Part shown: piece by piece, positions 43,107-62,507 of the stretch
Layout of the letters: each line of letters opens with the position of its first letter
How positions within the stretch are numbered: the stretch's first letter is position 1
NCBI GenBank assembly: GCA_016124845.1
Contig: WGMW01000004.1
Span: forward strand, 4,242-68,241
Direction: 5' to 3'
Source of the DNA: Flavobacteriales bacterium
GTDB lineage: Bacteria > Bacteroidota > Bacteroidia > UBA10329
DNA length: 64,000 nt
Notes under the pieces: generated by a model
Database searches by the model: none
Seen by the model: the letters and a program-made list of their open reading frames with translations, nothing else
Told to the model about the DNA's origin: nothing
Program-made: the position numbers and the translations under genes

Positions 43107-43151
43107 AATGGCCTCGTAGTTCAATGGATAGAATAGAAGTTTCCTAAACTT
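43107..43151 (+). repeat. left attachment site: 5' fragment of tRNA-Arg(CCT)
   Basis: 45-bp direct repeat of 49675-49719 with one mismatch; the tRNA sequence stops after the anticodon arm; TATTTTTG box at 43085-43092 upstream. Confidence 0.9.
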
Positions 43152-43261
43152 GGTCAATATAACACATTGATTTTCAAATAAGTAAGCAAGTTTTTATCGA
43201 GCTTATTGTCAAACATTTAAGGTACCGCTCTTTTATGTTTACGCAGCTAGAAAATAATTGA

Positions 43262-43290
43262 AATCGGATCACGCATAGCGTGATCCGATT
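43262..43290. repeat. hairpin with GATCACGC arms
   Basis: AATCGGATCACGC-ATA-GCGTGATCCGATT, 13-bp stem. Confidence 0.7.
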
Positions 43291-43298
43291 CATCACAT

Positions 43299-43784
43299 TT
43301 ACTCTTCAATGACAATGACATCATTGAATGTTGTACTGAATTGCTCAACCTGATGGGTTGGAACTATGACCACGATTCTTTCAGCGCCTAGCGCATGAGC
43401 AACACTCAATCGATGTTTGCCGTCATGAACCCAAATCTTGTTAGGCATTGGATGGGCTTGGAAATGCTTGTCTCTAAACAGCACCATAGGTGGTGTTAGT
43501 GGAACAGCCTCTTCCCATTCCAAAAGAATCTCGCATAGGGTTTCTCGGATTTGGTCACGTCTAAAAAGATGTGGTTCCCTCACGATTGGGGCGTACAATT
43601 CATCAAAGTGCTGTACCAAGTCGTCCATTGGAACTTCAATTATTGATAGCCCTTCTGGAATGATTCGTTGTACAGGTGCGTTGATGTGTTCATCGATGTC
43701 ATCAATGTCATTGAACGACCTGTGAAAAATTGGTTCAACCTGAGCAAAATGCCCATGGTTAAATAGTCTAATTACTTCTTCCAT
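43299..43784 (-). CDS. ParB/Srx-like domain protein
   Basis: LTPPMV...IWVHDGKHRLSVAHALG (DGxHR motif). Confidence 0.6.
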   Translation of the reverse strand: MEEVIRLFNHGHFAQVEPIFHRSFNDIDDIDEHINAPVQRIIPEGLSIIEVPMDDLVQHFDELYAPIVREPHLFRRDQIRETLCEILLEWEEAVPLTPPMVLFRDKHFQAHPMPNKIWVHDGKHRLSVAHALGAERIVVIVPTHQVEQFSTTFNDVIVIEE

Positions 43785-44119
43785 TGCTTTGAAGATTTCG
43801 TTTATAAAGTATCTCGGAACCAGTGTCCCTTGATACTATTAGAAGGAAATGTCAAAATGTTTCACCTATGCTGAAGAAATTCAAGAAGCCCCATTCCGCT
43901 TGACAGGAACTCCCAAGCGCAAAAAACCAATACAATCGCTAAAACCACCAAGCTGTAAACGAGAATTGCCTTACCTAGTTCGTCCTGTTGACCGTCATTC
44001 ATTGGGTTAAACCGTATCAAACGTGCTGGTGTATCAAAAAATCCTTGAGACAGGAAAGATACAGCGAGCTAGAGCGTATCTCGTTTATTCTTTTGAAACT
44101 CCTGATACACCTTTTAACC

Positions 44120-44497
44120 TTACTCTATACCTTTTCGAAATCTTGCTAACGCGTACCCGATTATACTTCCAAATAATGTTCCTAGCGTACAGTCGGTAAT
44201 GTTCTCGGTATATCCAAGAATGCATATTGGTATTACCACAGCCAGAATAGTTGCTAAATCGAACGCGTACTTCCACCACTTGGGATTAAACAGGTCGGCA
44301 AGGGATTTGCCTATTTGTCCGAATACAGGTGTGACCTTTTCTATTATCTCGGCAAGCTGTAGTTGTTTGGCTTGTTCCTCAAGTACTGAGGTCATTTGAG
44401 TAACCTGCTGCTTCAGTCCTTGATTCTCTTTGGTTAACTGTTCAATGATGTCTTCTGGTCGTGCTTCTGGTTGATGTTCCTGTTCTTCTTTGCTCAT
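44120..44497 (-). CDS. hypothetical coiled-coil plus 2-TM protein
   Basis: heptad N-half, two hydrophobic helices at the C-end. Confidence 0.65.
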   Translation of the reverse strand: MSKEEQEHQPEARPEDIIEQLTKENQGLKQQVTQMTSVLEEQAKQLQLAEIIEKVTPVFGQIGKSLADLFNPKWWKYAFDLATILAVVIPICILGYTENITDCTLGTLFGSIIGYALARFRKGIE

Positions 44498-44603
44498 GGT
44501 GGGGAGAATTATTTAGAAGTCCGTGATTGCAACCATCGTGCCACTAAGAAGCCAAGAATACAATAGTTTTTGAATTTGTAATAAAATTAGTTACATTAGT
44601 ACC

Positions 44604-45242
44604 ATGAAAGAAAAAGCAATAATCATATCAAGGTGTTCTACTAATGAGAACCGTCAGGATGTAACCCGTCAGTCAGAGGAACTACGGTCTAAGTATGGGC
44701 AATCGTATACTCTGGTCAAAGAATTCAGCTACTACCAATCAGGTACTAAGAATGACCAGGTGAATGATGAGATATTGGAATACGCCATTGCCAATGATGT
44801 TAAGCATATCATCGCACTCGAAATTTCACGGATTTCTCGTAAGATTTCATCGTTTGCCCTCTTCCTAGAAAATTGCAATTCTCGCCACATCAACATAATC
44901 ATAGATAACTTCGGTATGCACACCTTGCTTCCAGATGGAACGCAGAACGCCTTAATTCAGAGTACGCTTAGTATCGCGAGTGCCTTTAGTTCAATGGAGC
45001 TATCGTTGATAAAATCGAGATTGGACAGTGGACGGGAAAAATATATCCGTGATGGTGGTAAACTGGGGCGTAAGGTAGGTTCGACCGAAAGCGATGCCAC
45101 AACCCTCCAAAAACATTCGGACGTGGTAAAATACTTGAGACAACGGCAATCGGTTCGCATCACTATGAAACTCACAGGAAAAAGTAGTGGTACGGTTCAG
45201 AAGGTAAAACGAATTCTTTCAAGCACGAAGAAAGCCGCGTAA
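44604..45242 (+). CDS. small serine recombinase (resolvase/invertase)
   Basis: IISRCST...QDVTRQ, EISRISR, E..LIKSRLDSG, GGKLGRK, C-terminal HTH. Confidence 0.92.
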   Translation: MKEKAIIISRCSTNENRQDVTRQSEELRSKYGQSYTLVKEFSYYQSGTKNDQVNDEILEYAIANDVKHIIALEISRISRKISSFALFLENCNSRHINIIIDNFGMHTLLPDGTQNALIQSTLSIASAFSSMELSLIKSRLDSGREKYIRDGGKLGRKVGSTESDATTLQKHSDVVKYLRQRQSVRITMKLTGKSSGTVQKVKRILSSTKKAA

Positions 45243-45258
45243 TTCACGCGGCTTTCTT
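45228..45258. repeat. GCCGCGT-N5-ACGCGGC hairpin, family copy 1
   Basis: AAGAAAGCCGCGT-AATTC-ACGCGGCTTTCTT overlapping the resolvase stop codon. Confidence 0.8.
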
Positions 45259-45277
45259 ATAAGCCAAATGCTTCTGT

Positions 45278-45712
45278 TCACTTGGAACGCCTAGATTCCA
45301 CTCCCTCCTTAAATCCCTTGCAATAGCAGGGCGTTGGATTTATAAGTGAGTTGGCTGATTGATTGTGTCTCTGAACATAACTATGACAGCAACTGCTACA
45401 GTCACTACCCATATCAGAAACCATCTGACCAGCCGCAAAGCCTCGGTCATAGTCTGCTGGTCTACTACTACAATCTATGGCTTTTGGGGAATCACCACCA
45501 GTCAATTCAGCAAACCCAATCACCACCACAAGTGTTAAACACAACGTTATATACATGGAAGCCAGTAGTATCGACATCCTTCCCTTAGTAAATGCCTCCC
45601 ATACACCTACTTTCGCTATGTGCCCTTGATTCTCTCTATAGAACTTCTGAAGCAAATAAATGCTGTAAAGCAGCAGCAGAAGAAAGATTCCATTTATCAC
45701 CCAAACCATCAT
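45278..45712 (-). CDS. hypothetical 2-TM protein with Cys-rich C-terminal domain
   Basis: two hydrophobic segments; CSS, CSSCC, CYC. Confidence 0.65.
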   Translation of the reverse strand: MMVWVINGIFLLLLLYSIYLLQKFYRENQGHIAKVGVWEAFTKGRMSILLASMYITLCLTLVVVIGFAELTGGDSPKAIDCSSRPADYDRGFAAGQMVSDMGSDCSSCCHSYVQRHNQSANSLINPTPCYCKGFKEGVESRRSK

Positions 45713-45737
45713 TAAATCTAAGGATTACAATTGGAGG

Positions 45738-45763
45738 GAAAGCCGCGTGATCACGCGGCTTTC
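45738..45763. repeat. perfect 26-bp palindrome, family copy 2
   Basis: GAAAGCCGCGTGATCACGCGGCTTTC. Confidence 0.85.
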
Positions 45764-45778
45764 TCCATTAATATTTGT

Positions 45779-46021
45779 TCAATCACATGAACAGGTGGTT
45801 TGTGCATCACCAAGTTCGTTTTCCACCCAGTCTGTCCATTCTTCGGCATCATCAAACAGTGGGTTATTATCGGAAATGTCTTCCCAGCAAACGCCTTGTT
45901 CATAATTGGCGTAAATCGGAGTGTTCACATCTGAACATTGACAACATGGGTTTGAATTCTGACTGCATGATACAAGCAGAAGTGAGACAACCAGTAGAGG
46001 TAATGCATTGATTCTTTTCAT
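45779..46021 (-). CDS. small acidic Cys-rich lipoprotein
   Basis: MKR..LLLVSC lipobox, six further Cys. Confidence 0.65.
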   Translation of the reverse strand: MKRINALPLLVVSLLLVSCSQNSNPCCQCSDVNTPIYANYEQGVCWEDISDNNPLFDDAEEWTDWVENELGDAQTTCSCD

Positions 46022-46118
46022 GTGTTGTGATTTGGATTAATAGTTCCCCGTAAACATATAAAAATAGGTTCACATGTGAACCTATTGGGTCGAGGTCTCA
46101 TTTGCACCTTTCCAGTTC

Positions 46119-46346
46119 ATGGAATCTGAACGGGAAGTAACATTTCGAACGGCATTTGGGGAGCGTGTGAGACGTTTACGAATTGAAAAGGGGCTAAGCC
46201 AATACCAACTGGCGGACATTAGCAATCTGGACAGGTCAACCATCAAAAGAGTGGAAGCTGGCACAATAAACACCACTTTGGAAACCGCAAAGGCTATTGC
46301 CGAGGCTCTCGGAATGACACTAAGCGAGTTGGTTGACCTTGGTTAA
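46119..46346 (+). CDS. XRE family HTH regulator
   Basis: FGERVRRLRIEKGLSQYQLA...IKRVEAG. Confidence 0.9.
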   Translation: MESEREVTFRTAFGERVRRLRIEKGLSQYQLADISNLDRSTIKRVEAGTINTTLETAKAIAEALGMTLSELVDLG

Positions 46347-46375
46347 TTGCATGGTATAAATCATTATCGGTATGA

Positions 46376-46409
46376 AGGAAAGAGCCGCGTGATCACGCGG
46401 CTCTTTCCT
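46376..46409. repeat. perfect 34-bp palindrome, family copy 3
   Basis: AGGAAAGAGCCGCGTGATCACGCGGCTCTTTCCT. Confidence 0.85.
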
Positions 46410-46413
46410 CTTA

Positions 46414-46566
46414 TTAAATCTCTAGTTGTTGCTGAATCTGTCCTATTTCTTTCCGCAGCTTTAGAATCATCAACTGTTTGCGGTATCGTTCTTTCTTAGC
46501 TAAATCGGTTTCCACCTCCACTTTTTTCTCGGCAACCGCTATTCTGCTGTCTATGTCATCTGTCAT
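46414..46566 (-). CDS. 50-aa coiled-coil protein (below the ORF-track cut-off)
   Basis: hand translation MTDDIDSRIAVAEKKVEVETDLAKKERYRKQLMILKLRKEIGQIQQQLEI. Confidence 0.5.
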   Translation of the reverse strand: MTDDIDSRIAVAEKKVEVETDLAKKERYRKQLMILKLRKEIGQIQQQLEI

Positions 46567-46759
46567 ATCACTTCCTCTTCAATTGTCCTCCACGATGCGG
46601 AGGTTATTCGTCAAATTCATCATAGCGAACACGTGTTCATATCTCCCCTTTTTGGTACAGATTTTCCAAAAAATTTGCGAGGCACATGACCCGTGTTTTG
46701 TACATGATTTACATTCATCACCGATGAGTTAGGTTACGTAGTCCCCGGTCCCCTCCCCG

Positions 46760-46963
46760 TCAATCGTAGGCAGGGGGGTGTAGTGTAAACTCAATTTGTT
46801 GGTAAAGCTCACGTAAAACTTTCTTCCGTTTCTCTGGTATCTGTTTCAACCATGCGTATGACCCTGTGGCAGTTTTTGCCTCTTCCAAGTCCCTGAACAA
46901 CCTTGGATAACCATATTGTAAGACGGCTTGGTCAAATATGTCTAATTCGTAATTCTCACTCAT
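46760..46963 (-). CDS. hypothetical protein coupled to the HUH gene
   Basis: 67 aa; start overlaps the end of 46956-47492. Confidence 0.55.
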   Translation of the reverse strand: MSENYELDIFDQAVLQYGYPRLFRDLEEAKTATGSYAWLKQIPEKRKKVLRELYQQIEFTLHPPAYD

Positions 46964-47492
46964 AATCTTTCGTTTTAATAGTGGTTATGGAGACCCCCGT
47001 TTTGGTGATGTATTCTATCCATCGTTCCAAGTCGTGAACCTCTTGCTGGTAATAGTTCATTTCTGAAAATGCCGTTTTCAATAGTTGTACAAACTGATTT
47101 CGGTCTTCTGCTTTGTAGTAGGCATGAATGTGATTATGCTTGTTTACCAAGCCCTGCTCGATGGTGTAGTGGATTTCCACGTCCTTGTATCCCATTCCTC
47201 TTACTGCGTACCCGATAAGCTCGTGTATGTCACTTTCGCTAATCGGTGTGTTTGGGTCTATCGTTAACGAATAATACCCTGATGACCTTGGCAACTTACG
47301 TTTTCGCTTTCGTTGCCTCTTGAATACAGGTATTAGCATGTCGTGTATTCTCCATCCGTTCATGCCATCCTTGTATAGTACAGTTTCTGGTTTGGTCTCA
47401 GATAATTGTGCTGCAATCTTCCTTACTTGTCTCACACTGAGGTCTGTTTTCTCTGCTACCTCTTGAGTTGTGTATTCTTCCTTTCTAATCAT
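46956..47492 (-). CDS. HTH-fused HUH endonuclease (rolling-circle Rep/relaxase-like)
   Basis: N-terminal YTTQEVAEKTDLSVRQVRK HTH; YSLTIDP, EQG..HNHIHAYY and WIEYITK in motif I-II-III order. Confidence 0.7.
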   Translation of the reverse strand: MIRKEEYTTQEVAEKTDLSVRQVRKIAAQLSETKPETVLYKDGMNGWRIHDMLIPVFKRQRKRKRKLPRSSGYYSLTIDPNTPISESDIHELIGYAVRGMGYKDVEIHYTIEQGLVNKHNHIHAYYKAEDRNQFVQLLKTAFSEMNYYQQEVHDLERWIEYITKTGVSITTIKTKDYE

Positions 47493-47502
47493 TCTTTAAT
47501 CT

Positions 47503-47637
47503 TTAATTAAGTCCATGTCACACCCTAGTCGGAGTATCATTTGACCTCTAGCGTGACTTGGTTATTTATATATAAATAGGACGGTCTTAGTCAAAAGACC
47601 GATGTCGGACTGAAAAAGTCTGCCGAGACTTAATTAA
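47503..47637. other. candidate origin: symmetric multi-hairpin region
   Basis: TTAATTAAGTC / GACTTAATTAA terminal inverted repeat centred on the palindrome TATTTATATATAAATA (47563-47578). Confidence 0.45.
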
Positions 47638-47912
47638 CCGAATATTTCAAGTACAAACCGTAACATTTGGTCAGTCTTGTGGTGACGTTTTGGACGCCTG
47701 AAAATGTGGTTTTAGAGCGTAACCATAATTTTAGATGGATAACCATCAACGCTTCTGATGAATCGGCAACTGGCTTAGGTTACGACTACCAGTTATTCAG
47801 GAGAAACAACAAACCGTTCGGTTCTAAAGCAAACATATCACGGATTTTTGACACTTTCCACAATTTGGATGAATTCGGGTGAAATTTGTTATGGATTGTA
47901 CCGCATTTCTAT

Positions 47913-49571
47913 TCACAAATCGAATTGGTCTCCCAGTGCTTTCAATACACTATCCGTTCGACCATCGTTAAACCCTGTCTTAAGATATGCATCTGTGACA
48001 CCCAATGAAGAATGTGCCATTGCTTTAGAAACATCCATGGTTGAAGCACCAGAATTCATCATAATGTTTGCAAAAGAAGTCCTTGGTAAATGAGTGCTGA
48101 ACGTCCTATCGATTCCAATGTGCTTCTGTAACTGCTTCAGGTGGCGATTGTAAACAATACCAGCTTTGGTGACTTTTAGGTACTGCTGTTCGTCTATGAT
48201 GGAGAAATCGTTCTGCTTACCAACGTTGGCAAAGTCCGAATCTTTAAGCATTCCAAAAACGAATCTAGTGGAGGTTCGTTCGTTTGTTGCGAACTCATTA
48301 ATAACGCCAACGCTATTATCAAAATGAATCCTGTTGAGTTCGGCTATTCGGGTTTTTATTTGCGTGACGAGGCTCTTGTAGAATAGCTCATAGTTCGCAT
48401 AGAGAGAGCTAAAGTCAAACTTGTATAAAGAATACGTGATACGTCCTTCTGATTCAACAAACTTACAAAGACAGCCCAGTTCTGTCTTTAGTTCTTCCAA
48501 TGTCATAGACATGATGACCTTTGCTGAATGCAACCAATACGACTTGTCAATAGCTACGCTAAGTGGCACATTTCCAATCAATTCATCTGGAAACCCATAC
48601 GGTGGTGTCGGTAACATGCCATATTGCATTTGTTGTAAAAGCCGTAGCCGTTCTTGTTGGAGTGCACTAACATCAGCCTGAGCCTCTATCGGAGCATTTA
48701 CATCCACTTCAAGCCCCAGCAGCCGCTTTAATAAATCCAAAATGATGTCCGTAATAGCAATATCGACAATCGCATTGGTTTTGAACATATTATAGACGAT
48801 TCTACCATTATGAAGATTTCCATACCTCAGAGTAACGAGGTCTGACACCCTCATTCCACCTGTGAAGAACTGAAATAGAAATAGGTCGCGAGCCTTAGAT
48901 AAGCGAGGAATATCAATTTTAGAATCTATAAGTTTAGTTATGTCATCTCGGTACAAACTTTCCTTCCTTTTCGGTTGTTTACGCCCATAATCATATGAAT
49001 AGAAAGGGTTGTTCCCAACAATCACGCTTTTGTCCTTTTTCGCGTGACCATAGATAACCTGTAATATTTTGAGATAATGAGTGGCAGTATTGGATTCCAT
49101 GCCCCCCTTCTTCATATAGAACCGAAATTGGTCTAAGAAATCTTGGGTCAACTCGGAGAACAACAAATCCGTCTTGCTCTCCGATGCCAAGAACTTCTTT
49201 AGTTTTTTGTACACGGTCTGAAGTTTTATTCGCGTACCCGTTTTATCCTTCAGCTTCGCACTGTTCAAATACCCTTGGTAAAACGCTAGAAATGATGCCT
49301 TACTGTTGGCACCATCGTATGTGTCGAACGACCTACCATCAGCCAACACCACCGAAAGGTGCTGCTCAATAGTGTCGTTGTATCCCTGGTAATCAATTTT
49401 AACCGACTTCTTGACCCTTTGTTTGACCTTATCCCAGTACTTAATGTCTAATGGAGGCAGTTTTAATGACCTTACACTGCTTTTGCGGTTTTCAACTCGC
49501 TGAAGGAACAAGTAGCCAAGAGTGTCATCTTTACTAATTTTGCGAAATATGACCTTGATACTTGAACTCAT
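47913..49571 (-). CDS. tyrosine recombinase/integrase
   Basis: GGMRVSD (R), MFKT (K), THLPRTSFA (HxxR), MAHSS...TDAY (H,Y); TAGCTTTG box on the minus strand at 49596-49603. Confidence 0.93.
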   Translation of the reverse strand: MSSSIKVIFRKISKDDTLGYLFLQRVENRKSSVRSLKLPPLDIKYWDKVKQRVKKSVKIDYQGYNDTIEQHLSVVLADGRSFDTYDGANSKASFLAFYQGYLNSAKLKDKTGTRIKLQTVYKKLKKFLASESKTDLLFSELTQDFLDQFRFYMKKGGMESNTATHYLKILQVIYGHAKKDKSVIVGNNPFYSYDYGRKQPKRKESLYRDDITKLIDSKIDIPRLSKARDLFLFQFFTGGMRVSDLVTLRYGNLHNGRIVYNMFKTNAIVDIAITDIILDLLKRLLGLEVDVNAPIEAQADVSALQQERLRLLQQMQYGMLPTPPYGFPDELIGNVPLSVAIDKSYWLHSAKVIMSMTLEELKTELGCLCKFVESEGRITYSLYKFDFSSLYANYELFYKSLVTQIKTRIAELNRIHFDNSVGVINEFATNERTSTRFVFGMLKDSDFANVGKQNDFSIIDEQQYLKVTKAGIVYNRHLKQLQKHIGIDRTFSTHLPRTSFANIMMNSGASTMDVSKAMAHSSLGVTDAYLKTGFNDGRTDSVLKALGDQFDL

Positions 49572-49677
49572 CAGTTTTGTCGAACAATTGTCAAACAAAG
49601 CTAGTATGTTCTACAAAAAATGAAGAATGTTTGATAATCAATAATCATATAAACTACTGATATTCAGTAGGTATAAT

Positions 49678-49752
49678 GGCTTCGTAGTTCAATGGATAGA
49701 ATAGAAGTTTCCTAAACTTTTGATACAGGTTCGATTCCTGTCGAGGCTACCA
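49678..49752 (+). tRNA. tRNA-Arg(CCT), reconstituted at the right attachment site
   Basis: full cloverleaf: GGCTTCG/CGAGGCT acceptor, TTCCTAA loop, ACAGG-TTCGATT-CCTGT T arm, encoded CCA. Confidence 0.95.
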
Positions 49753-49758
49753 ACCAAT

Positions 49759-51474
49759 CTACATTTTCTCCGCCCACTCCAAACCATCAGGCAATTCGGA
49801 GGACGAAAACTCCAAGTGCAGCACCCTTCTCGGTTTCTGTTTCGCTGAGCGATTGGAAGAGTGAAGCAACAACGGCTTCATCAGCAACACGCCTCCTGCC
49901 GAAATTTCGCAATCGTACGGAATGCTGTTTTCTGTGATGGTTTTTATCTCATCCGTTGATAGAATTTTATTGTGACTTCCCGGCATTACGCGCAAACATC
50001 CATTCTCCCGGTCCGCATCATCTAAATGAACTCGAATGGTGAAGACGTTGCGATTGATCTCGACCGGTGGCAGCACGCTGATGACATCATCGCGCTCGGC
50101 CCAGCCAGTGAATCCTTCAACCTCCGCTTTTTGCTTCACATGAATGGTTCTATCCTGATGCCAACCTACCGACCAATTGGCACTCGGTTGCTTGTTCATG
50201 TAAATGGCTTTTACCAAAAACGCCTTCGGGTCGACAGACGATACCACGCGCTGCAAATTCTTGTTGAACAACATCGGCTTGAGCTCAGGAATGGCCTCGA
50301 GCAAGCCCCGCTTCACATAATTCTGATTGCTCTCCGCGTCAAACGCCTTTTCCAACAATCGGTTCATCTGCTTGATGGCGCGCTGGGAATACACATGATT
50401 CAGAATTCCGAAACCCTTGTGTTTCATCTTTCGCGAAGCACTGATCAACCCCTTTTCATTCAGATCGGTATTATAGAGGTCAATAGCCCCTTCCAATCTA
50501 TCGCGTATGCTTCTTTTGAGTCGCTCCGGTTTAATGACCATCAAGCCATCTCCAAAGGCCAAAAGTTCTTTCTCCAACTCAAAATTGTGCTGAACATGAA
50601 TTCTGAATGTCATGCCGTAATGGTCTCTCTCCAGCAGCTGTTGTGACCAGTGCAACGGTTTCGTCATCACGTATGGCGCATGCGTGTGATTCACGAAAAA
50701 ATCAACCTCCATCGGCTTTAAAGATGGACTGACCGAAACCCCGATCGCATCTCTGAAATAATCTTCGGCATTGAAATCAGGCCTATCCCAATAGACAGCA
50801 TCTGAATACTCGATCTGAATTATTCTGTCCAAGGCTGGAGTCATAAGTTGCGCCTGTCTGCCCTTGGCTCCGATGAGAAACCAACGGTTTCGGAACTCCT
50901 TCAACAGATACGGATGAAACTCGAATGTCTGCGGATGACGTGCCTTGAATGATTGGTACGTAAGCCGAATGACGTGCTTTTTGATGATGGCCTGATACAG
51001 CGGCTCCAAGAAATCCAACCCTTTCAGGTTCTCATTCTTTTCCATATCGATCACCGGTTTCTGATGCGTTTTCTGCGCGTAAACGTGGTCTTCGAGCTTC
51101 TGCACCATCGCATCCAATTCCTTGAAGTGCGAAAACCCTTTGAACTCCTTCAGAAACTCCACGGTCTCCATCAAACGACCAAGGTCTTGGTCAGTAATTG
51201 GAATGTTGGTGATACTGTAATCGCGGTCTTCGTAGGTGTAATACTTCTTATCGGTGACAACAATGGGCGCATTGTACCCCAACTTATCGCTGCGCATCAT
51301 CTGAATATCACCCTGCACCGTTCTCCGGCTCACGCCTTTGTCAATGCCTTCATATTCATACAACGCATCCGAAACGGCATCAATCAGATCTTCCAATGTC
51401 CATTGGCGATAATGGTTCTGCAAACACTTATCAATGGTCTTGTAGCGAATAAGCGCGTTCCGATTTACAGGCAT
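49759..51474 (-). CDS. WYL-domain transcriptional regulator fused to a PhyH-like Fe(II)/2OG dioxygenase domain
   Basis: wHTH (VSRRTVQGDI), WYL (HPYLLKEFRNRWFLIG, ALDRI), then WHQD...RVMPGSH...LLHSS...RRVLHLE in one frame. Confidence 0.88.
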   Translation of the reverse strand: MPVNRNALIRYKTIDKCLQNHYRQWTLEDLIDAVSDALYEYEGIDKGVSRRTVQGDIQMMRSDKLGYNAPIVVTDKKYYTYEDRDYSITNIPITDQDLGRLMETVEFLKEFKGFSHFKELDAMVQKLEDHVYAQKTHQKPVIDMEKNENLKGLDFLEPLYQAIIKKHVIRLTYQSFKARHPQTFEFHPYLLKEFRNRWFLIGAKGRQAQLMTPALDRIIQIEYSDAVYWDRPDFNAEDYFRDAIGVSVSPSLKPMEVDFFVNHTHAPYVMTKPLHWSQQLLERDHYGMTFRIHVQHNFELEKELLAFGDGLMVIKPERLKRSIRDRLEGAIDLYNTDLNEKGLISASRKMKHKGFGILNHVYSQRAIKQMNRLLEKAFDAESNQNYVKRGLLEAIPELKPMLFNKNLQRVVSSVDPKAFLVKAIYMNKQPSANWSVGWHQDRTIHVKQKAEVEGFTGWAERDDVISVLPPVEINRNVFTIRVHLDDADRENGCLRVMPGSHNKILSTDEIKTITENSIPYDCEISAGGVLLMKPLLLHSSNRSAKQKPRRVLHLEFSSSELPDGLEWAEKM

Positions 51475-51495
51475 TTTGAACTTAATTTTTGAAAA

Positions 51496-51551
51496 AGTAG
51501 AAATTATTTTCTACTGCGCAAAAAGACTGCGCAGTGGGTCAGAAATCTTTG
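51496..51551. promoter_or_regulatory. candidate WYL operator and divergent promoter region
   Basis: ACTGCGCA-N7-TGCGCAGT (51513-51535), AGTAGAAA-N4-TTTCTACT (51496-51515), near-consensus AATCTTTG (51544-51551). Confidence 0.6.
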
Positions 51552-51615
51552 TCCAGTTCATTGAAATAAGGCCCTGGCGCAGAAGAGTGAAGAGGTTGCG
51601 TCAGGGCCACATTAA

Positions 51616-51691
51616 GGAGCAGTGGCAGAGATGGTCAATGCGTCCCGCTGAAAACGGGAAGATAGAGGTTCAATTCCTTTCTACTCCACCA
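51616..51691 (+). tRNA. tRNA-Phe(GAA)
   Basis: cloverleaf with TCCCG-CTGAAAA-CGGGA arm, one C:A mismatch in the acceptor, encoded CCA. Confidence 0.85.
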
Positions 51692-51695
51692 AATT

Positions 51696-51777
51696 GGGAA
51701 TGCGCCAGCGTTGGAGAGCTGGGCCGGACTGTAAATCCGGTGTGCAAACTGAATAGGTTCGAATCCTTTCATTCCCA
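51696..51777 (+). tRNA. tRNA-Tyr(GTA), atypical
   Basis: GGGAATG/CATTCCC acceptor, CCGGA-CTGTAAA-TCCGG arm, 5-bp D stem, C at position 8, no encoded CCA. Confidence 0.8.
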
Positions 51778-51796
51778 CGGTTCTTTGAAAATATTG

Positions 51797-52389
51797 TGCT
51801 TAGCACGCAAGGCCTTTCCCCGAAAGGGAAAGACGGAAAGCAACAGAAGTGACGGCCCGGGCACGGGTTTCTGTATGGCTCTGCAGTCTGATTCCAGTTG
51901 GAAGTTCAGATACTGCCCGATCCAATGTCCGTTTTCCGCCACGTTGTTGATGGGGGTTCGAATCCCTCATTCCGAAATACGGAATTAGTTCAATGGTAGA
52001 ATGGCAACTCCAAAAGCGCAGGTTCGAATCCTGCCACCGAGAGATCGGTGTAGCTCAGCTGGCCAGAGCACTGGACGTTTAATCCAGGTTGAGATAGACT
52101 CATAATCTATCATCGAGAAGCGGTCACTTCTAAAAATGACCACCCGAGAAGATCGTGCTGAGTTGGTCGGTTCCGAAACTGCTTGCAGTTGACGAACAGT
52201 CTGAAAAAGGCTCTGAAGCTTCAGGATACCGCTTGAGGAATTCAGGCCACTTTCTGTTGAGGGAGATGAATGGAGAATGCGAAATGTCGCGTTCAAAAAT
52301 CCATCCGAATCTGTAGAAACTGGTCCGAATGCAACATGCTCAATGCAGCTTCCGCCTTTGCCAGATGATCGGCTCAGCAAGGTCTTCTC
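51797..52389 (+). ncRNA. candidate large structured ncRNA with two circularly permuted tRNA-like modules
   Basis: near-continuous hand-identified helices; T-arm/capped acceptor/D-arm modules at 51943-52008 and 52018-52087; long closing helix 52146-52169/52366-52389. Boundaries inferred. Confidence 0.7.
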
Positions 52390-52429
52390 TTTTAAGAGAA
52401 ATATGAATGATGAATAAATAATAGAAACG

Positions 52430-53521
52430 ATGAAACGAGTAAGAATTAACATCGGAAAAGTTGGTTTGGTATTCAGGTATGGCGATTTCACACGCGTTAT
52501 TACCGAAGGTGTACATTGGATCGGTCTGTTTGACGAGGTCAAACTTTACGACCAGACCCAGCCTTTCTACTCCACCATCAACCTGAACATTCTTTTGCGA
52601 AACACCGAACTGGTCAGCATGCTTGAAGTGGTGGAAGTGAAAGAATCGCAGATAGCACTTCAGTTTGAGAAGGACGTTTTCAAAGGTGTGCTTACCGCAG
52701 GTTCGTACGCTTTCTGGAAAGGCGTGATCGATCATCGTTTTCAGTTGATCGACCTCTCGAACTACGAAATCGCAGCGGATGTTGAGAAAGACATCTTGAC
52801 CAAACCTGAAGTATTGCGTTACGTGAGGGTTTTTGTGGTCGAGTCGTTTGAGAAAGGTCTGATGTTCGTGAATGGTGAGTTCAAGAAAGAAATGAAGGCG
52901 GGTGTGTACTACTTCTGGAAGAACACCGATGCCATCAGCTTTCAGAAAGTTGATCTGCGACAGCAGCAAATGGAGATCCCAGGTCAGGAAATTCTGACCA
53001 AGGACAAGGCTGCCTTGCGAGTGAACTTCAACGTGAAGTACAAGGTGACCGATGCACAGAAGGCGCTTGTTGAGAACAAGGACTTCGAGAAGCAACTGTA
53101 CGTAGCCGTGCAAATGGCATTGCGTGAATTTGTTGGAGGCCTGGATCTGGACGAGCTGCTTGAACGCAAGGAATCCGTGAGCGACTTCGTGCTGAAAGAG
53201 GTGAAAGCCCGAGCGGTGGTGCTTGGTATCGAGATCGCAGATTGCGGTATCAAGGACATCATCCTGCCTGGCGAAGTGAAGGACATTATGAACCGTGTTC
53301 TCATTGCGCAGAAACAGGCACAGGCCAACATCATCACCCGAAGGGAAGAAACAGCCTCTACCAGAAGCTTGCTGAACACCGCCAAGCTGATGGAAGACAA
53401 CGAGATGCTGTACAAGCTGAAGGAGATGGAATACGTTGAGAAGATCGCGGATAAGATCAATAGTATCACCCTCTCTGGAGGTGGTCAGGTTGTCAACCAA
53501 CTGAAGGAGATCTTTACCTGA
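52430..53521 (+). CDS. SPFH/band-7 (slipin-like) protein
   Basis: repeated N-terminal beta units, GQEILTKDK, ALREFVG, IKDIILPG, RREETASTRSLLNTAKLM. Confidence 0.9.
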   Translation: MKRVRINIGKVGLVFRYGDFTRVITEGVHWIGLFDEVKLYDQTQPFYSTINLNILLRNTELVSMLEVVEVKESQIALQFEKDVFKGVLTAGSYAFWKGVIDHRFQLIDLSNYEIAADVEKDILTKPEVLRYVRVFVVESFEKGLMFVNGEFKKEMKAGVYYFWKNTDAISFQKVDLRQQQMEIPGQEILTKDKAALRVNFNVKYKVTDAQKALVENKDFEKQLYVAVQMALREFVGGLDLDELLERKESVSDFVLKEVKARAVVLGIEIADCGIKDIILPGEVKDIMNRVLIAQKQAQANIITRREETASTRSLLNTAKLMEDNEMLYKLKEMEYVEKIADKINSITLSGGGQVVNQLKEIFT

Positions 53522-53534
53522 TCTCCTTCACCAT

Positions 53535-53611
53535 GGTGCCGTAGCTCAATTGGCCAGAGCACCCGACTGTCTCTCGGGCGGTTGAGGGTTCGAGTCCCTT
53601 CGGCACCGCCA
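53535..53611 (+). tRNA. tRNA-Asp(GTC)
   Basis: GGTGCCG/CGGCACC acceptor, CCCGA-CTGTCTC-TCGGG arm (T at 37), G discriminator, encoded CCA. Confidence 0.9.
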
Positions 53612-53613
53612 AT

Positions 53614-53686
53614 CAATCCATAGGTTCAATCGGTAGACTATCCGACTTTTAATCGGAGGGTGCAGGTTCGAATCCTGCTGGGTTGA
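53614..53686 (+). tRNA. tRNA-Lys(TTT)
   Basis: CAATCCA/TGGGTTG acceptor, TCCGA-CTTTTAA-TCGGA arm, GCAGG-TTCGAAT-CCTGC T arm, no encoded CCA. Confidence 0.85.
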
Positions 53687-53771
53687 CAAAAGCCGTAATC
53701 CTGCCGTATCGACCAAATTGGTTGAATCCTACATGAATCGCATAAGATTGAGACTATTTACTTTGCGGTCG

Positions 53772-56804: not shown

Positions 56805-58175
56805 ATGTCCGACTCATTCGATCTTTTAGACCAGCTTGGAGATTCTAAGAAAGTGGAGAACCTCAAGGCCAAAATTCAAAAGCAAAAAACATCAGACGTA
56901 GTATCAAAACTCGATCAGATTGAATCTCAGATAGACCGCGCGGTCTCGGAACAGCGCGACCCGGAAGAGATCGTTTCCGGCATCATCGAATCGAATTTCG
57001 AAACCCTGAACGGAGATGTGAATCAGACCGAACAGGACTTGCAGGAACTGATGCTTCATTTGCGTGGCATGTTGGATTCATGCGGTGGCGAATTCTCCAA
57101 ACTTCAGGAATTGAACCCAGAGGAACTCGGATGGATAGAACAGGCCAAAAAGAAGCTGGCCGATGCCGAAAATGAGCTTGCGGGTGCCAAAGGAATGAGC
57201 AACGCTTGGAATATCCTTTTCGGCTACAAGAACAGCCAGATCTCTAAAAAGGAGCAGGAACTGACACAGAGCCAGACCAACCTGAAGGATACGGAAGCAC
57301 GCGCCAACAAAAGCTACCGCGACCGTTTGAAGAATGCAGACATTGGTGAGTCGTTGAACCGGGTGATCAGCCAAGTTCAAGGAATGGTGGGCATTATTGA
57401 GGATATGATCCTTGATGTTGAGAAGCAGATCGATGCGCTTAAAAACCGCAAGGAGCTTGCTTTTGAAACAAAGGAGAAAGCTGCGGTGGTGATGCGTGAT
57501 AAGAAAAAGGAGCTCGAAGACATTGAGGCGCAACTGAAAAATGCCGAAAATGAACTTACAGAACTGCCTAACAACAGCCCTGAATACACCGAGCAGGAGA
57601 AAAAGATCGCTGATCTGCGCGAGAAGCGCGCAACGGCCAAAGGCAGTTACAATATCGCTTTGGGCATCTTTCAAAGTAAGGAGCGTTTCGTAGATCAGAT
57701 CGTGATCCATTTGGAAGCGCAGACCACTACCAAAAACAACCTGAAGCAGTTGATCGGTCAGTTGAAGAGTGATACGGAAGAACGTGTCACCACCTACGAA
57801 TCCGGTCTTCAGCTGATTCAAACAGCCACCGCGCAAGAGGCCGCCTCGCTCTACGAAGAAGCAGGTGTGAAGACGGATCAGAAAATAACCGAGATAGCAG
57901 CGAAGGTGCTGGTAGGTTCAGAAAAAGACCGCGTGGAACGCGTGAAGAAACACCCGGAGCGTATGACCGAGCTGCATAAAGTGCTTGTGGCCATGGCTGA
58001 AGCAACTGCCAAGTACAAGCAGGAAGATGCCAAGATCATGGAGCAGCACAGCAAGAAATTCGGTATCGATGTAAAGGAAACGTTCTCGCACCGTTACGAA
58101 AAGTCGGCCGATGCGCCTGCAGCGGCTCCCTCAGAGCCAAGCAAGGACAAATCTGTGAACGACCTCATGGAGTGA
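56805..58175 (+). CDS. long coiled-coil protein, first gene of the AAA operon
   Basis: heptad-rich throughout, short hydrophobic WNILFG patch; TAGATTTG box at 56763-56770. Confidence 0.8.
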   Translation: MSDSFDLLDQLGDSKKVENLKAKIQKQKTSDVVSKLDQIESQIDRAVSEQRDPEEIVSGIIESNFETLNGDVNQTEQDLQELMLHLRGMLDSCGGEFSKLQELNPEELGWIEQAKKKLADAENELAGAKGMSNAWNILFGYKNSQISKKEQELTQSQTNLKDTEARANKSYRDRLKNADIGESLNRVISQVQGMVGIIEDMILDVEKQIDALKNRKELAFETKEKAAVVMRDKKKELEDIEAQLKNAENELTELPNNSPEYTEQEKKIADLREKRATAKGSYNIALGIFQSKERFVDQIVIHLEAQTTTKNNLKQLIGQLKSDTEERVTTYESGLQLIQTATAQEAASLYEEAGVKTDQKITEIAAKVLVGSEKDRVERVKKHPERMTELHKVLVAMAEATAKYKQEDAKIMEQHSKKFGIDVKETFSHRYEKSADAPAAAPSEPSKDKSVNDLME

Positions 58176-58193
58176 TCGGCCTGACCGTATTTC

Positions 58194-59285
58194 ATGAAAA
58201 CCTCTGAAGTAGCCGAACATTTTACACCCCTCGATAGAAGCGTGCTCGAAGGTGAGCACCCTTACTACGAGTACTTCAAGTACCTGAAATTTGCGTTGGA
58301 GCAGTTCATCAACTCGGTTGACAACTACCAAGGAGATGAACCCTACGAGGCCGCGATCATCAAAGATTTCTCACAGAAGTTCCTGAATTCCATCGAGGTG
58401 CTTTCGCTGAAGTACGCATTCAATGAAACACACCCGATGTTGATCGACCTGACGGAATCAGGGTTTCCGAATCACATGGAGTTCAAGCGGCTGGAGGACG
58501 ACCTGCAGCGCAAAGCGGATGAGCTGAAAGAAGGACCATCGGTGGAAACACTCAAAACGTTGATCCTGGATCAGATGATCCGAAGCAAGACCGAGCCCGT
58601 ACGGTTGTTGAAACAGATCAGCAAGCGTTCGTATTTTGAGATGATCGATGGACGGAAACTTTTCAAGGAATTCGTTTCGGGGCCGTTGAAGCTCATCTCG
58701 AAGGGAAATGACTTCAACTGGCGCTATCTGTACAGTTGGGGTTCGTTCGATAGTGTCACCAATCGGCCGTACATCTACATTCTCGTGTTCGACCATCATC
58801 GCGAAGATGCAGAAGCGGAAAAAGCCCTCCACAGCTTCGGTTTTGTGGACAGCATCCGGAAGACCACGCACAACACCGCACCGCTAAAGGTGATGATCTC
58901 GGATATTGACGCATTGAGCGAACTCATTATGCCCAAGGTGCTGAAGCGCATTGCCATTGGCCCGATCTACGGAGCCTATGCACAGGATGAGCATCCGTTC
59001 ACAACCATGCTCAAAAAGCGGTTCGATTACAAGGATTTCATCTTCCGCTACGATGCGGAGGTCATTTTCTCCATCGGTCAATCTCGCAAAGAGAGTTTTC
59101 TCTCCAAAGGGGAACTGCGGCAGATATTCTATATCGATGAATCGAACAAGGAGTGCATGGAAAAGATGATCTCTCGCCTCAACAAATACAGCATTACCAG
59201 CCATGCGGTGTGGCAACATCTGAGCGAATATCATCCCGAAGCACTGAATGAACTGGTAGTGCAGCCATACATATATCATCATTGA
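58194..59285 (+). CDS. hypothetical soluble protein
   Basis: 363-aa ORF; stop overlaps the ATPase start (TGATG). Confidence 0.8.
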   Translation: MKTSEVAEHFTPLDRSVLEGEHPYYEYFKYLKFALEQFINSVDNYQGDEPYEAAIIKDFSQKFLNSIEVLSLKYAFNETHPMLIDLTESGFPNHMEFKRLEDDLQRKADELKEGPSVETLKTLILDQMIRSKTEPVRLLKQISKRSYFEMIDGRKLFKEFVSGPLKLISKGNDFNWRYLYSWGSFDSVTNRPYIYILVFDHHREDAEAEKALHSFGFVDSIRKTTHNTAPLKVMISDIDALSELIMPKVLKRIAIGPIYGAYAQDEHPFTTMLKKRFDYKDFIFRYDAEVIFSIGQSRKESFLSKGELRQIFYIDESNKECMEKMISRLNKYSITSHAVWQHLSEYHPEALNELVVQPYIYHH

Positions 59286-61246
59286 TGGAGAAAACAGACT
59301 CATCCTTACTGATCATTAAAGAAGAATACCTTGAAGAGTTCAAGGAGGAAGTAACCGGTTATTTGAAAACCGTTGGTTGGGTGGCCGATGTCAATAAGAC
59401 CAAAAGCGATATCGATCTTTCCTTTCTCATTCAGGCTGGTAAAGCTCTGAACCTGAACGAGACGGATGAACTTTCCATCATCCGCAACGCGGTTCGCATC
59501 AGCAACGACCGCGTCATTCTTTCCACTACGTCAAGCGTCATCCTCAATGCCCTGAAAAAGGGCTATTGTCTTGGAAAATATGTGGGCGATCAGTACAGCC
59601 GTGCCTGTGGTTTGGAACTTCTCATCCAAAAGAACAAGGACGGAAGTTTGCATCAGTCCGAACTGCCCGAATTTCACGATAAGTCGCAGACACAGGCGGC
59701 CGTGGTGTTGATGGTCGCTTCGAGTTACGTGCAATTTGCGCTTCGCGATCATCTGGCCGATGAAACGTCTTCCATCAACATCGATTTCAACGGAATTCCG
59801 GAAGTGAACCTGAACCGTCCGTCAAAGGCCATTCAGTGTTCGTTGTATTACTACGCGGCCTACCTCGAACGTTCGGGTGTGGTGAACGGTGATCTGGACT
59901 TCCTCAAGATCACCGAACTCTATTTCCAGCGATTGAGCGAAGAGGTGAAACTTCGCAAAGACGGCTTCAAATACGTGGAGCCGTTCATAGAGAACCATTA
60001 CAAATTGGAAAAGACCGATTTTGTGGTTCAAGGCTTCGAAACCATGTCAACAAGTGTGACGGTCGGCATGAGTTTCAACCCCACGCGGATGGAAGACATT
60101 GTGGCCAACAAGCAGGCCAAGCACCTTTTTCAGCGTTATGCCGAACGTCTTCTCTGCTACGATCTGGAAACCAAGCGGAATCCGTTGAACGAGTTGGGCG
60201 GACTGCCGAATGTGACCATGGCAGACGGTAAACCCGGAACGGGAAAAAGTATGCTTATTGCAGCCACCGCAACGTTGCTCAAGGAACGCTGCGACCTGCT
60301 CGGGTACGACTTCCTTTTCTGGCCGCTGCCAGAGAATATCGTTTCCACTTACCAAGGCGGAACGGCCGAGCGGGCCATGGAGTGGTTCAAACCCATTCAA
60401 GACCCAACCAAGATCATTTTTGCGCCCATTGATGATGCGGAGAACAACTTGGAGGAACGTACCCGCCAAGGCGTTTCGGCCGGGGTCCGTGAGTTCATTG
60501 GCGTGTTCCTGAGAAATACCGAAGGAGCTTATGCGGTGAACTATGGCAACCGTCTCATCAGCCTGTTCACCAACATTCCCGATCAGATTGATAAAGCGGT
60601 GCTTTCCCGCATTCAGATGCGTGTAAAAATGGATGGTGCCGGAACAGACAGAGACTTTATTGATCAGGATTACCTGTGGTGGCGGAAGTACGAGAAACTT
60701 GAACAAGGCTTCGTCAACTCGCCTCCGCCAAAAGGCTACGAATACATGGCCGCTCAGAAGCGACCTGAATCGCTGAATGAACTGCTGCATCACAATTATG
60801 AGTTTACCAATGAGGATGTAAAGGCCATTTTTGATGAGACGATGGCCAACGCAGGTTCCACTTCGCACGATTTCTTCGGTGATCTCTATGCCGCCATCCA
60901 ACGGAAATATCCATTCTTCTCATCTCGCGATCTACGAAACATTCAGAAAGCCGTGGATGCGCGTGTGATCGATTTCGATCTTCCCGAAATATGGTGGGAG
61001 AAACCGGAGGATTTCTTCCTGAAGGATTACGACACCAAGGTGGAAATGCTAAAGGTGCTGATGAAGGAAAACCTGAAGGGCTCCAATTTCTCGCAACTTC
61101 GGTTGTACGAGGCGTTGAATTACATCGAAACATCCATCCGCATCAACGAAACGGGCATCAACCGTGAGATAAAGGAAGCGGCCAAGCGACTGTACATACA
61201 GGGCGAGGCGCGCGAAATGGCAAGCAAAGGTCAGATCCATGATTAG
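59285..61246 (+). CDS. AAA family ATPase
   Basis: GKPGTGKS Walker A, IFAPIDDAE Walker B variant, FTNIPDQIDKAVLSR second region of homology. Confidence 0.9.
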   Translation: MEKTDSSLLIIKEEYLEEFKEEVTGYLKTVGWVADVNKTKSDIDLSFLIQAGKALNLNETDELSIIRNAVRISNDRVILSTTSSVILNALKKGYCLGKYVGDQYSRACGLELLIQKNKDGSLHQSELPEFHDKSQTQAAVVLMVASSYVQFALRDHLADETSSINIDFNGIPEVNLNRPSKAIQCSLYYYAAYLERSGVVNGDLDFLKITELYFQRLSEEVKLRKDGFKYVEPFIENHYKLEKTDFVVQGFETMSTSVTVGMSFNPTRMEDIVANKQAKHLFQRYAERLLCYDLETKRNPLNELGGLPNVTMADGKPGTGKSMLIAATATLLKERCDLLGYDFLFWPLPENIVSTYQGGTAERAMEWFKPIQDPTKIIFAPIDDAENNLEERTRQGVSAGVREFIGVFLRNTEGAYAVNYGNRLISLFTNIPDQIDKAVLSRIQMRVKMDGAGTDRDFIDQDYLWWRKYEKLEQGFVNSPPPKGYEYMAAQKRPESLNELLHHNYEFTNEDVKAIFDETMANAGSTSHDFFGDLYAAIQRKYPFFSSRDLRNIQKAVDARVIDFDLPEIWWEKPEDFFLKDYDTKVEMLKVLMKENLKGSNFSQLRLYEALNYIETSIRINETGINREIKEAAKRLYIQGEAREMASKGQIHD

Positions 61247-62507
61247 ACTGATCGAGTCGAAGCTGTTTGGCGACCGCCTTTTTTACATCGACAGTGCGTT
61301 GATGCAGAAGCGCTACAACCGATGTTTGGAGGACATTGGAATTGAACCCACCAAGCTCAAGAATTTCCACGTGGACGGTTGGGGCTGGAGCCCCGAAATA
61401 GCCAAGGAGAAGGACGATCGATTCTACCTGTCTCACGGACTCGCCAATCCGTTTGCCATTATCGTTTCTCCCGATCAGAAAGACTGCCCCGTGTACATGC
61501 CTTACCACACGTTTGATTGGGAGATACACAGACGTGTTTTCGAAAACTATGCGTTGCAGATAGAGGACATCACCTCGCTTAATGCCATTTGGTTCGAATT
61601 GGATCAGAACATCAGCTCCTACCGATCGCCACAGGATCTGTTGATGATGGAGGTGGTGAATCTGAAATTTAATGTGGCCGGGGATCTTGCAACTGCTGCA
61701 GCCGAACAGAAAAAACTGGTCGGCACATACCTCACCGAACCCCGTAGTTGGATGAACGCTGAACTTCGCGAACAGATCATTGCAAGTAGCAAGAAACACG
61801 GAGATCTACGCTACCGCAATCTCGATATGCCAGATTTCCCATTTTCAAATCTGTCTTCTTATTACACCTTGGCGTTCAACGGCATGTTCGTGTTCAAAAA
61901 GACCGCGGGCGGCAAACCCATCCTGATCTTCGAAGACAACTCGTCTGAGATGAGCGGGAACGGCAATCACTTGCACATTGAGTTCAATTTGGAGGACAAG
62001 AGCTTCATCCCCTACCTCTACAATTTGGATCTTTTGGACAGCGAAACGGATTGTTTTCTGGATCATATTGAGTTGCTTGAGTTGCAGTTGGAACACATGA
62101 TCGTTTCTGCGGCCATGCAATTGGACGAAACCATTCCGGTGGACAAGATGACGCGCACGCAGCGAAAAGGACTGATCGGAAAATTGGAGAGCGCGTCCTT
62201 GCTGGATGAAAACTATTTCGAACTCGAAATGGTGATCAATAAACTGGTAAATGGCCCGGATAAAGTTCGGATATCGGAAAAGCTGAACCAGTACATGCTG
62301 CAACCACACGTTACAACCACTCCCGAACAGAAAACCGTACTCTGGCACCTGATCTCCAAGGTGCAGAAAAACAACCCGGTGCTACAATTTGCTTTCGATA
62401 AGACCTCGTTCTATCAAGAATACCAAACATGGAAGCCCCCAATGCAGGAATGGGCGATCGGTTGTATATTGAGAAACCGAGGCATTTACGCTAAACTCAT
62501 CAAATAA
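61239..62507 (+). CDS. DUF6638-like protein
   Basis: RYNRCL..IG...T.L..FHVDGWGWSPEIA and YLSHGLAN..AIIVSPDQ resemble that family as recalled; not searched. Confidence 0.6.
   Translation: MIRLIESKLFGDRLFYIDSALMQKRYNRCLEDIGIEPTKLKNFHVDGWGWSPEIAKEKDDRFYLSHGLANPFAIIVSPDQKDCPVYMPYHTFDWEIHRRVFENYALQIEDITSLNAIWFELDQNISSYRSPQDLLMMEVVNLKFNVAGDLATAAAEQKKLVGTYLTEPRSWMNAELREQIIASSKKHGDLRYRNLDMPDFPFSNLSSYYTLAFNGMFVFKKTAGGKPILIFEDNSSEMSGNGNHLHIEFNLEDKSFIPYLYNLDLLDSETDCFLDHIELLELQLEHMIVSAAMQLDETIPVDKMTRTQRKGLIGKLESASLLDENYFELEMVINKLVNGPDKVRISEKLNQYMLQPHVTTTPEQKTVLWHLISKVQKNNPVLQFAFDKTSFYQEYQTWKPPMQEWAIGCILRNRGIYAKLIK

Follow-up and report, generated by a model that had tools for sequence, protein, structure and literature searches.

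A large tRNA-mimic RNA upstream of a slipin gene at a probable RNA-repair locus of a Flavobacteriales bacterium

The locus and its structured RNA

The DNA considered here is a stretch of 64,000 nucleotides from a Flavobacteriales bacterium (contig WGMW01000004.1, positions 4242 to 68241; hereafter the window), the genome of which is 98.9% complete. At one locus, a gene for a WYL regulator on the minus strand is followed by a palindromic operator and, on the plus strand, by genes for tRNA-Phe and tRNA-Tyr, a gene-free gap of about 640 nucleotides, a gene for a slipin-family SPFH (Band-7) protein, and genes for tRNA-Asp and tRNA-Lys. All of these, including the structured character of the gap, were found where an earlier reading, made from the sequence alone, had placed them. 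The gap is occupied by a large RNA with tRNA-like units. It is highly probable that the locus belongs to a regulon for RNA repair and that its structured RNA is functional, a conclusion which is ranked far safer than any single role of that RNA. The features are, in window coordinates, the following.

49759-51474, minus strand: WYL-WCX regulator of 571 amino acids with a fused C-terminal PhyH-type 2OG-Fe(II) dioxygenase domain (Pfam); candidate regulator
51513-51535, no strand assigned: palindromic operator ACTGCGCA-N7-TGCGCAGT, 39-61 nucleotides upstream of the WYL start
51556-51566, plus strand: boxA-like stable-RNA leader motif, first copy; the same motif stands after several housekeeping tRNA genes of the genome
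51616-51691, plus strand: spare tRNA-Phe(GAA), identical to the housekeeping copy at 46 of 80 aligned positions
51696-51778, plus strand: spare tRNA-Tyr(GUA), 58 of 90 positions identical to the housekeeping copy
51780-51790, plus strand: second boxA-like copy, where the leader of the RNA begins
51848-51920, plus strand: 5' domain of the RNA, a three-way junction with a conserved 9-nucleotide hairpin loop and a stem with a 2-nucleotide RU bulge; helices 1-3 covary
51943-52007, plus strand: permuted tRNA unit 1 of YrlA topology, with open anticodon-like stem, T arm, closed acceptor hairpin and D arm; helices 4-7 covary
52018-52070, plus strand: permuted tRNA unit 2, with T arm, closed acceptor hairpin and D arm (sequence, T-stem covariation, weak YrlA match)
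52071-52087, plus strand: anticodon stem-loop 1, Lys(UUU)-like, degenerate in that G replaces U33; the intact Lys form occurs in eight homologous RNAs
52093-52111, plus strand: anticodon stem-loop 2, CAU, its loop identical to that of two housekeeping CAU tRNAs (stem-loop filter, tRNA comparison)
52122-52141, plus strand: conserved hairpin with a CUU...AAAA loop (compensatory stems seen by eye in the alignment; folds)
52146-52393, plus strand: 3' domain, a long outer stem, three-way junction and irregular rod, then a U-run, where the RNA probably ends (inverted repeat; folds)
52430-53521, plus strand: slipin-family SPFH/Band-7 protein of 363 amino acids, with three N-terminal beta repeats, an SPFH2 domain and a coiled coil (Pfam Band_7, E 1e-30; AlphaFold2)
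53535-53611, plus strand: spare tRNA-Asp(GUC), with U37 where the housekeeping tRNA has A37 (tRNA comparison)
53614-53687, plus strand: spare tRNA-Lys(UUU), 48 of 75 positions identical to the housekeeping copy

Positions 51780-52400 fold with -218 kcal/mol (z = -7.0), and none of 20 shuffles was equally low. Of 296 relatives of the SPFH protein, the 80 best were used, and homologues were taken from the stretches around them; all counts of homologous loci refer to these 80. Measured from the 5' domain, the RNA has a median length of 563 nucleotides among them. Its 5' third was described by a structure of 36 pairs and evaluated in 45 sequences. In the covariance model of this part, the anticodon-like stem is shifted by one column; in the corrected register, 93% of the cells are paired, compared with 42-47% in slid controls, and 0 of 500 shuffles are as high. 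Thirty of the 36 pairs changed on both sides, that is, they covary. When 57 sequences of less than 85% identity were searched without regard to structure, of the 23 column pairs with the strongest covariation, 22 were canonical, against a background of 3%.

The tRNA-like character is most evident in unit 1, where the tertiary bases U8, A14, T54, T55, C56, and A58 are present in all 45 sequences and the Levitt pair in 44 of them, the latter covarying between G-C (34) and A-U (10). The RU bulge of the 5' domain reads AU in 40 of the 45 sequences and GU in five. Among the 80 loci, two T loops per RNA were counted in 57, one in 17, three in four, and none in two. The 3' domain of about 240 nucleotides takes the same overall fold in each of 12 sequences folded singly; its covariation is weaker, its alignment is poor, and the consensus fold failed on it. 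The tRNA mimicry that had been suggested for this RNA from its sequence is thus borne out by covarying structure and invariant tertiary bases, while the anticodon stem-loops had been overlooked.

Since the RNA lies among tRNA genes and parts of it are weakly called by tRNA scanners, it might be regarded as tRNA pseudogenes in decay or as a precursor of tRNAs, in either case devoid of function; the permuted units probably arose by tandem tRNA duplication. Such a functionless state is, however, very improbable. The closed acceptor hairpin is paired in 98.9% of the cells, with both-side changes in four of four pairs, covariation extends to the non-tRNA 5' domain, where mean identity is about 47%, and the RNA is present in a single copy per genome, tied to slipin. 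A protein-coding reading of the gap was rejected, as the open reading frames (ORFs) 51476-51988 (plus strand) and 51985-52542 (minus strand) share sequence with tRNAs and with covarying helices, and a conserved ORF cluster is lacking at this position. Rfam searches at the gathering thresholds and at E ≤ 10 gave no match of the RNA to a large-RNA family, examples being GOLLD, ROOL, OLE, and tmRNA.

Contigs from four metatranscriptome runs hold pieces from near relatives over the RNA, slipin, and WYL genes; one piece spans the 3' end of the RNA into slipin and one crosses the operator, and such contigs carry neither strand nor level. These pieces were kept out of the evidence because the runs had been picked for holding the stretch, the operator is crossed, and strand and level are missing. 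At a contig joint corresponding to 51691-51779, a close relative has other sequence at the spot of tRNA-Tyr.

The name of the slipin family follows the NCBI annotation of the homologues. The AlphaFold2 model of the window protein has a mean confidence (pLDDT) of 83.9. A transmembrane helix is not predicted in it, the maximum for a hydrophobic 19-mer being at most 1.46, and from this, together with knowledge of the family, a soluble ring is to be inferred. As in the eukaryotic major vault protein (MVP), the SPFH domain follows beta repeats and precedes a long helix; in Foldseek, though, stomatin is the best structural match (E 7e-15), while MVP scores E ~1e-9 over 394-471 columns. The N-terminal repeats alone are closer to the SPFH1 subdomain (Z 3.2-4.0, root-mean-square deviation 1.3-1.8 Å over 42 residues) than to MVP repeat R1 (Z 2.3, Foldseek E 0.4). 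The resemblance of the repeats to SPFH1 is itself weak, so that a specific link to vaults is at most putative. A search of the ESM Atlas with slipin returned its own family only.

Candidate regulator, operator, and homologous loci

In the candidate regulator, Pfam assigns residues 155-222 to WYL, 254-330 to WCX, and 401-550 to PhyH. The WYL gene had been recognized in the sequence-only reading; the PhyH domain, with its motif H439-x-D441 and H538 intact, had not, and it could provide a further sensor or an enzymatic repair activity. The fusion (window 49759-50300) recurs in five of ten long WYL homologues tested, the other five having a shorter extension without Pfam match. As in other WYL regulator systems, WYL and WCX domains are combined with a palindromic operator, here at three genome sites.

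The operator matrix was trained on 35 sites, all from other genomes. With it, the window operator is the best site of the genome (36.4 bits), followed by sites at 27.2 and 25.3 bits; the next one has 22.4 bits, and the maxima of three shuffled genomes were 21.7, 13.3, and 17.0 bits. The three top sites belong to the window locus, to rtcB, and to a MoxR-vWA-beta-propeller (bpMoxR) operon. The copies before rtcB (contig 86599) and the bpMoxR operon (contig 79774) differ from the window copy in 1 of 22 bases. The rtcB gene starts at contig 86662, on the same contig, 29 kb downstream of the SPFH gene and 18.4 kb beyond the end of the window; the bpMoxR operon starts at contig 79868, directly behind its operator copy. 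It had correctly been stated that rtcB and TROVE are absent from the window, and a search for rtcB and the operator in the rest of the genome had been advised. The conclusion that the operon has no RNA ligase is a window artefact, because rtcB is found in the genome behind the same operator. A TROVE (Ro60) gene was not found in the genome. The boxA-like motifs presumably serve in antitermination; a scan for sigma-70 promoters and terminators stayed at chance level.

Among the homologous loci, the commonest gene order is divergent WYL, operator, RNA, SPFH, and rtcB. A same-strand rtcB lies within 5 kb in 42 of the 80 loci, a divergent WYL gene within 5 kb in 30, and both in 29. Some RNA ligase (RtcB, RLIG1-like, or Rnl2-like) is present in 54 loci, TROVE in one. 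Recurrent neighbours are RlaP, Thg1, RF-1-type, exonuclease, and bpMoxR genes. All of these neighbour counts draw on 71 of 112 neighbour representatives, picked by eye. An operator of at least 15 bits lies within 2.5 kb upstream in 62/80 loci, a count which is partly circular in that the training sites are among these loci; in 14 held-out loci the operator pattern was found in nine.

The RNA itself was detected upstream of the SPFH gene in 48 of the 80 loci by a single-sequence search and in 79 by an iterated profile, the latter count being circular on these loci. In the held-out loci, six of which are closely related to members of the profile's training set and one of these identical, the profile matches 14/14 (reversed controls 0), and the covariance model of the 5' third gives at least 70 bits in 13. 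The co-occurrence of SPFH gene and RNA expected in the sequence-only reading is thereby upheld, as is their recurrence with RNA-repair genes; a prior published prediction, treated below, had been missed.

Beyond these loci, the covariance model was run on 80 random genomes of the phylum, with 35 candidates scored per genome. Of the three places to which it pointed, two were slipin loci, and the third was occupied by RNAs of YrlA type next to TROVE. At least three tandem YrlA-like RNAs stand directly after a TROVE/vWA gene at locus 1200-1700 of a Bacteroidota genome. The module is patchy, being present in 14 of 400 random genomes of the phylum. In 21 other genomes of the genus slipin was not found, and a DNA search there gave tRNA-sized bits only; nor did slipin match any of 50,697 phage records at E 1e-10. 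Cultured carriers include Chryseolinea serpens, Ohtaekwangia kribbensis, and Marinifilum fragile.

By eye, an RU-bulged stem is also recognizable upstream of slipin in Photobacterium, Burkholderia, and Subdoligranulum, the RNAs of the first two having tRNA-like units in normal order. These loci outside the Bacteroidota were left uncounted as RNA matches, since their model scores of 30-42 bits are similar to the 26-36 bits obtained from tRNA clusters. The slipin-RlaP genes of Citrobacter and E. coli are preceded by a gap of 450-530 nucleotides (3546-3995 and 3030-3560 of the fetched stretches) that contains one T loop and is not matched in Rfam; the Citrobacter locus has a divergent rtcR.

Anticodon stem-loops, related systems, and possible roles

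Anticodon stem-loops were sought in the central segments of 55 non-redundant RNAs (two of 57 had been dropped, being without T loop) with a filter demanding at least five stem pairs and a loop of the form Y-U-NNN-R-N. It returned 61 stem-loops, compared with 1.7 in dinucleotide shuffles. When the closed acceptor hairpins are subtracted, a count to which the shuffle control does not extend, 56 stem-loops remain in 42 of the 55 RNAs, 12 of which have two or three. At least 15 anticodons are represented, led by Lys UUU (8), Phe GAA (7), Leu CAA (7), and Asn GUU (6), then CAU, UAG, UGG, and GUC, and the set differs from homologue to homologue. Position 37 of the RNA loops equals the housekeeping base in 49 of 49 cases, with this one genome as reference and a purine demanded by the filter; because pyrimidines are shut out, G versus A is the fair contrast at this position. 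For anticodons of the G37 type (Leu UAG, Pro UGG, Arg ACG), G37 is found in 7/7 RNA loops as opposed to 7/31 co-encoded tRNAs.

All four tRNAs of the window have a housekeeping counterpart elsewhere in the genome with 58-73% identity, so that their description as divergent second copies holds. Over the 80 loci, position 37 of the spare tRNAs is the housekeeping base of this genome in 56 of 120, and the cassette tRNA-Asp of homologous loci carries U37 in 21 of 23. In spare tRNA-Pro(UGG), A37 is found in 13 of 13, and other spare tRNAs for C-codons often have A37 as well; judged from sequence, this may be an escape from m1G37 methylation.

A functional combination of Band-7 protein, tRNA-like b7a-tRNA, and RtcB was predicted by Burroughs and Aravind in 2016, with YrlA occasionally beside Band-7, as related in the accessible part of 10.1101/312249, which describes the prediction as being without experimental validation. 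Band-7 proteins are called homologues of MVP, with citation of the 2016 work, in the accessible text of PMC13404743. The window likewise has a Band-7 gene and an adjoining tRNA-like noncoding RNA. RtcB is adjacent in the predicted system; here its gene is 29 kb away under the same operator, adjacency being seen in 42 of the 80 homologues. As far as those texts describe it, b7a-tRNA closely resembles an authentic tRNA, whereas the RNA described here has about 560 nucleotides, permuted and usually doubled units, extra anticodon stem-loops, and two flanking non-tRNA domains. No b7a-tRNA-type family of Rfam matched it, and a large slipin RNA with anticodon-loop arrays was not found described in Rfam or in literature searches covering listings and the openings of abstracts; the 2016 supplement may hold part of the RNA. 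Measured against these partially available sources, the large modular RNA, whose anticodon loops are swappable, would be the new part, the theme of Band-7, tRNA-like RNA, and RtcB and the vault analogy having been predicted before.

YrlA (RF02553) was defined in PMC4201824, in the accessible text of which a mention of Bacteroidetes was not found. The window RNA shares with it the order of T arm, closed acceptor stem, and D arm as well as the tRNA tertiary bases, and the match is weak (52006-52079, 37.1 bits versus a gathering threshold of 69; 31-42 bits at nine of 11 other slipin loci). It differs in being four times longer, in having anticodon loops, of which YrlA has none, and in that a Ro60 gene, which YrlA would have within about 4 kb, was not found in the genome. 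The Ro60-binding motif GNCGAAN(0-1)G is absent from the window and occurs in 15/80 homologues versus 12.8 by chance.

Two regulated systems are comparable. In Anabaena, rtcB (all3526), slipin (alr0740), and the spare tRNA (trn) operon share one repressor, TrcR, and the set is induced by translation stress (PMC10272220, in the part available). The scattered arrangement of rtcB, slipin, and spare tRNAs under one regulator is the same, while regulator family and operator are different and a large tRNA-mimic RNA was not found described in that part. In Salmonella, the accessible portion of PMC7790460 reports rsr-yrlBA-rtcBA under RtcR, which similarly unites regulator, ring protein, tRNA-mimic RNA, and RtcB. 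SOS-induced nucleases there cut the loops of Tyr, Phe, Trp, Cys, fMet, and Leu(UAG) tRNAs, and loop-less YrlA is spared; that system has a CARF/sigma-54 regulator and a Ro60 ring in place of WYL and SPFH, and its YrlA stays uncleaved. Changes in the anticodon loops of phage tRNAs have been proposed to confer nuclease resistance, according to what is accessible of PMC10264068.

For the locus of the window, a reading that we favour, while placing it slightly short of probable, is that it forms one branch of a response to damaged tRNA under WYL control. The RNA would here be a slipin-held bait for anticodon nucleases, and the spare tRNAs would replace those that are cut. The WYL protein would bind the three operators and switch them on upon sensing a nucleic-acid fragment. 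The tRNAs, the RNA, and the slipin mRNA would all be released by processing of a single transcript. The soluble slipin ring would grip the RNA by its non-tRNA 5' and 3' domains, taking the role of Ro60 for Y RNAs. The elbows and the housekeeping-type anticodon loops would be recognized and cut by anticodon nucleases, and, being cut and yet not chargeable, the RNA would, it is proposed, divert cleavage from real tRNAs. RtcB would reseal both bait RNA and real tRNAs, and spare tRNAs with altered loops or stems would sustain translation. It is from comparison of sequences and structures, from the sharing of the operator, and from the co-occurrence of ligases that we infer a bait function; binding, induction, and cleavage are putative steps.

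The invariant elbow bases and the varying number and identity of the loops would equally suit a repair scaffold, in which the elbows tether RtcB or the healing enzymes (RlaP, Thg1, Rnl2, exonuclease) to the slipin ring and the loops are leftovers of tRNA genes. The partner enzymes do vary among ligase families, and a scaffold has already been proposed for the pair of Band-7 and tRNA-like RNA, as for Y RNAs (10.1101/312249, accessible part). Leftovers should decay, however, and 28 of the 56 loops match a housekeeping loop at all seven bases on a stem of at least five pairs; several RNAs, moreover, have extra loops apart from any D or T arm. A scaffold thus appears possible, though rather unlikely.

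The RNA immediately precedes slipin in every case, on the same strand, and it might act as a sensor or cis-regulator, namely as a leader of the slipin mRNA in which loop cleavage frees slipin expression or makes a fragment that activates WYL in a positive feedback. tRNA fragments are indeed the ligand of the analogous regulator RtcR of Salmonella (PMC7790460, as far as available). The flanking real tRNAs and the terminal long stem with its U-run, on the other hand, suit release as a separate RNA, and the distance between RNA and slipin start varies by more than 200 nucleotides among homologues, which leaves a regulatory leader improbable.

The bait reading can be carried further to an anticodon decoy array, and in this extended form, taken as a whole, it is to be viewed as doubtful. 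The noncoding RNA would capture stem-loops of tRNA genes and display them on non-chargeable elbows within a soluble, vault-like slipin ring, to be resealed by RtcB; the loop set of a strain would at once record and block the nucleases it had met, and loop-altered spare tRNAs would translate on.

Several points weigh against the favoured reading. Many anticodon nucleases require modified bases, which the RNA loops may or may not receive. Thirteen of the 55 RNAs have no stem-loop that passes the filter, and the first loop of the window is degenerate (G33). The anticodon loops of the window's spare tRNA-Phe, tRNA-Tyr, and tRNA-Lys equal those of the housekeeping copies, only that of tRNA-Asp being changed. 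The contrast at position 37 counts related Flavobacterium loci repeatedly, in addition to its single reference genome and purine-only filter. No ligase was found in the fetched stretch of 26 loci, 18 are without an upstream operator, and 50 are without an adjacent WYL gene; the genome, finally, has a second WYL paralogue.

A prediction standing since 2016 is herewith provided with a defined RNA, a structure backed by covariation, an operator, and cultured carriers. The role of tRNA-mimic Y-type RNAs and the question of a bacterial forerunner of the vault ribonucleoprotein are therefore testable. If the swappable loops are indeed bait, they would constitute an RNA-based, reprogrammable defence against tRNA nucleases.

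Neighbouring genes and further features

The bpMoxR ternary conflict system (contig 79774-86572) comprises bpX4, MoxR, bpX2, bpX0/1, and bpX3 and runs into rtcB; it also adjoins slipin in about five Flavobacterium loci. Between window and rtcB, contig 68879-79732 carries genes for NrtR, a protein similar to phosphoribosyl pyrophosphate (PRPP) synthetase, NAMPT (NAD salvage), Macro, a metallo-beta-lactamase fold, Tpt1/KptA (RNA 2'-phosphotransferase), and VIT; an operator above threshold was not found in that interval.

At window 43107-49719, a 6.6-kb integrative element is inserted in tRNA-Arg(CCU), bounded by 45-bp direct repeats of the 5' half of the tRNA and having a G+C content of about 41%. 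It encodes a tyrosine integrase, a resolvase, and a protein with a weak relaxase match, is unrelated to the slipin module, and contains two copies of a 26-bp palindromic element (45741-46409). Membership of the module in this element was rejected, as the module lies outside the direct repeats and has host-like G+C content. On the other side, the operon at 56805-63031 encodes a coiled-coil protein, an unknown protein of 363 amino acids, an AAA ATPase, DUF6638, and a small membrane protein, and looks like a conflict-related module.

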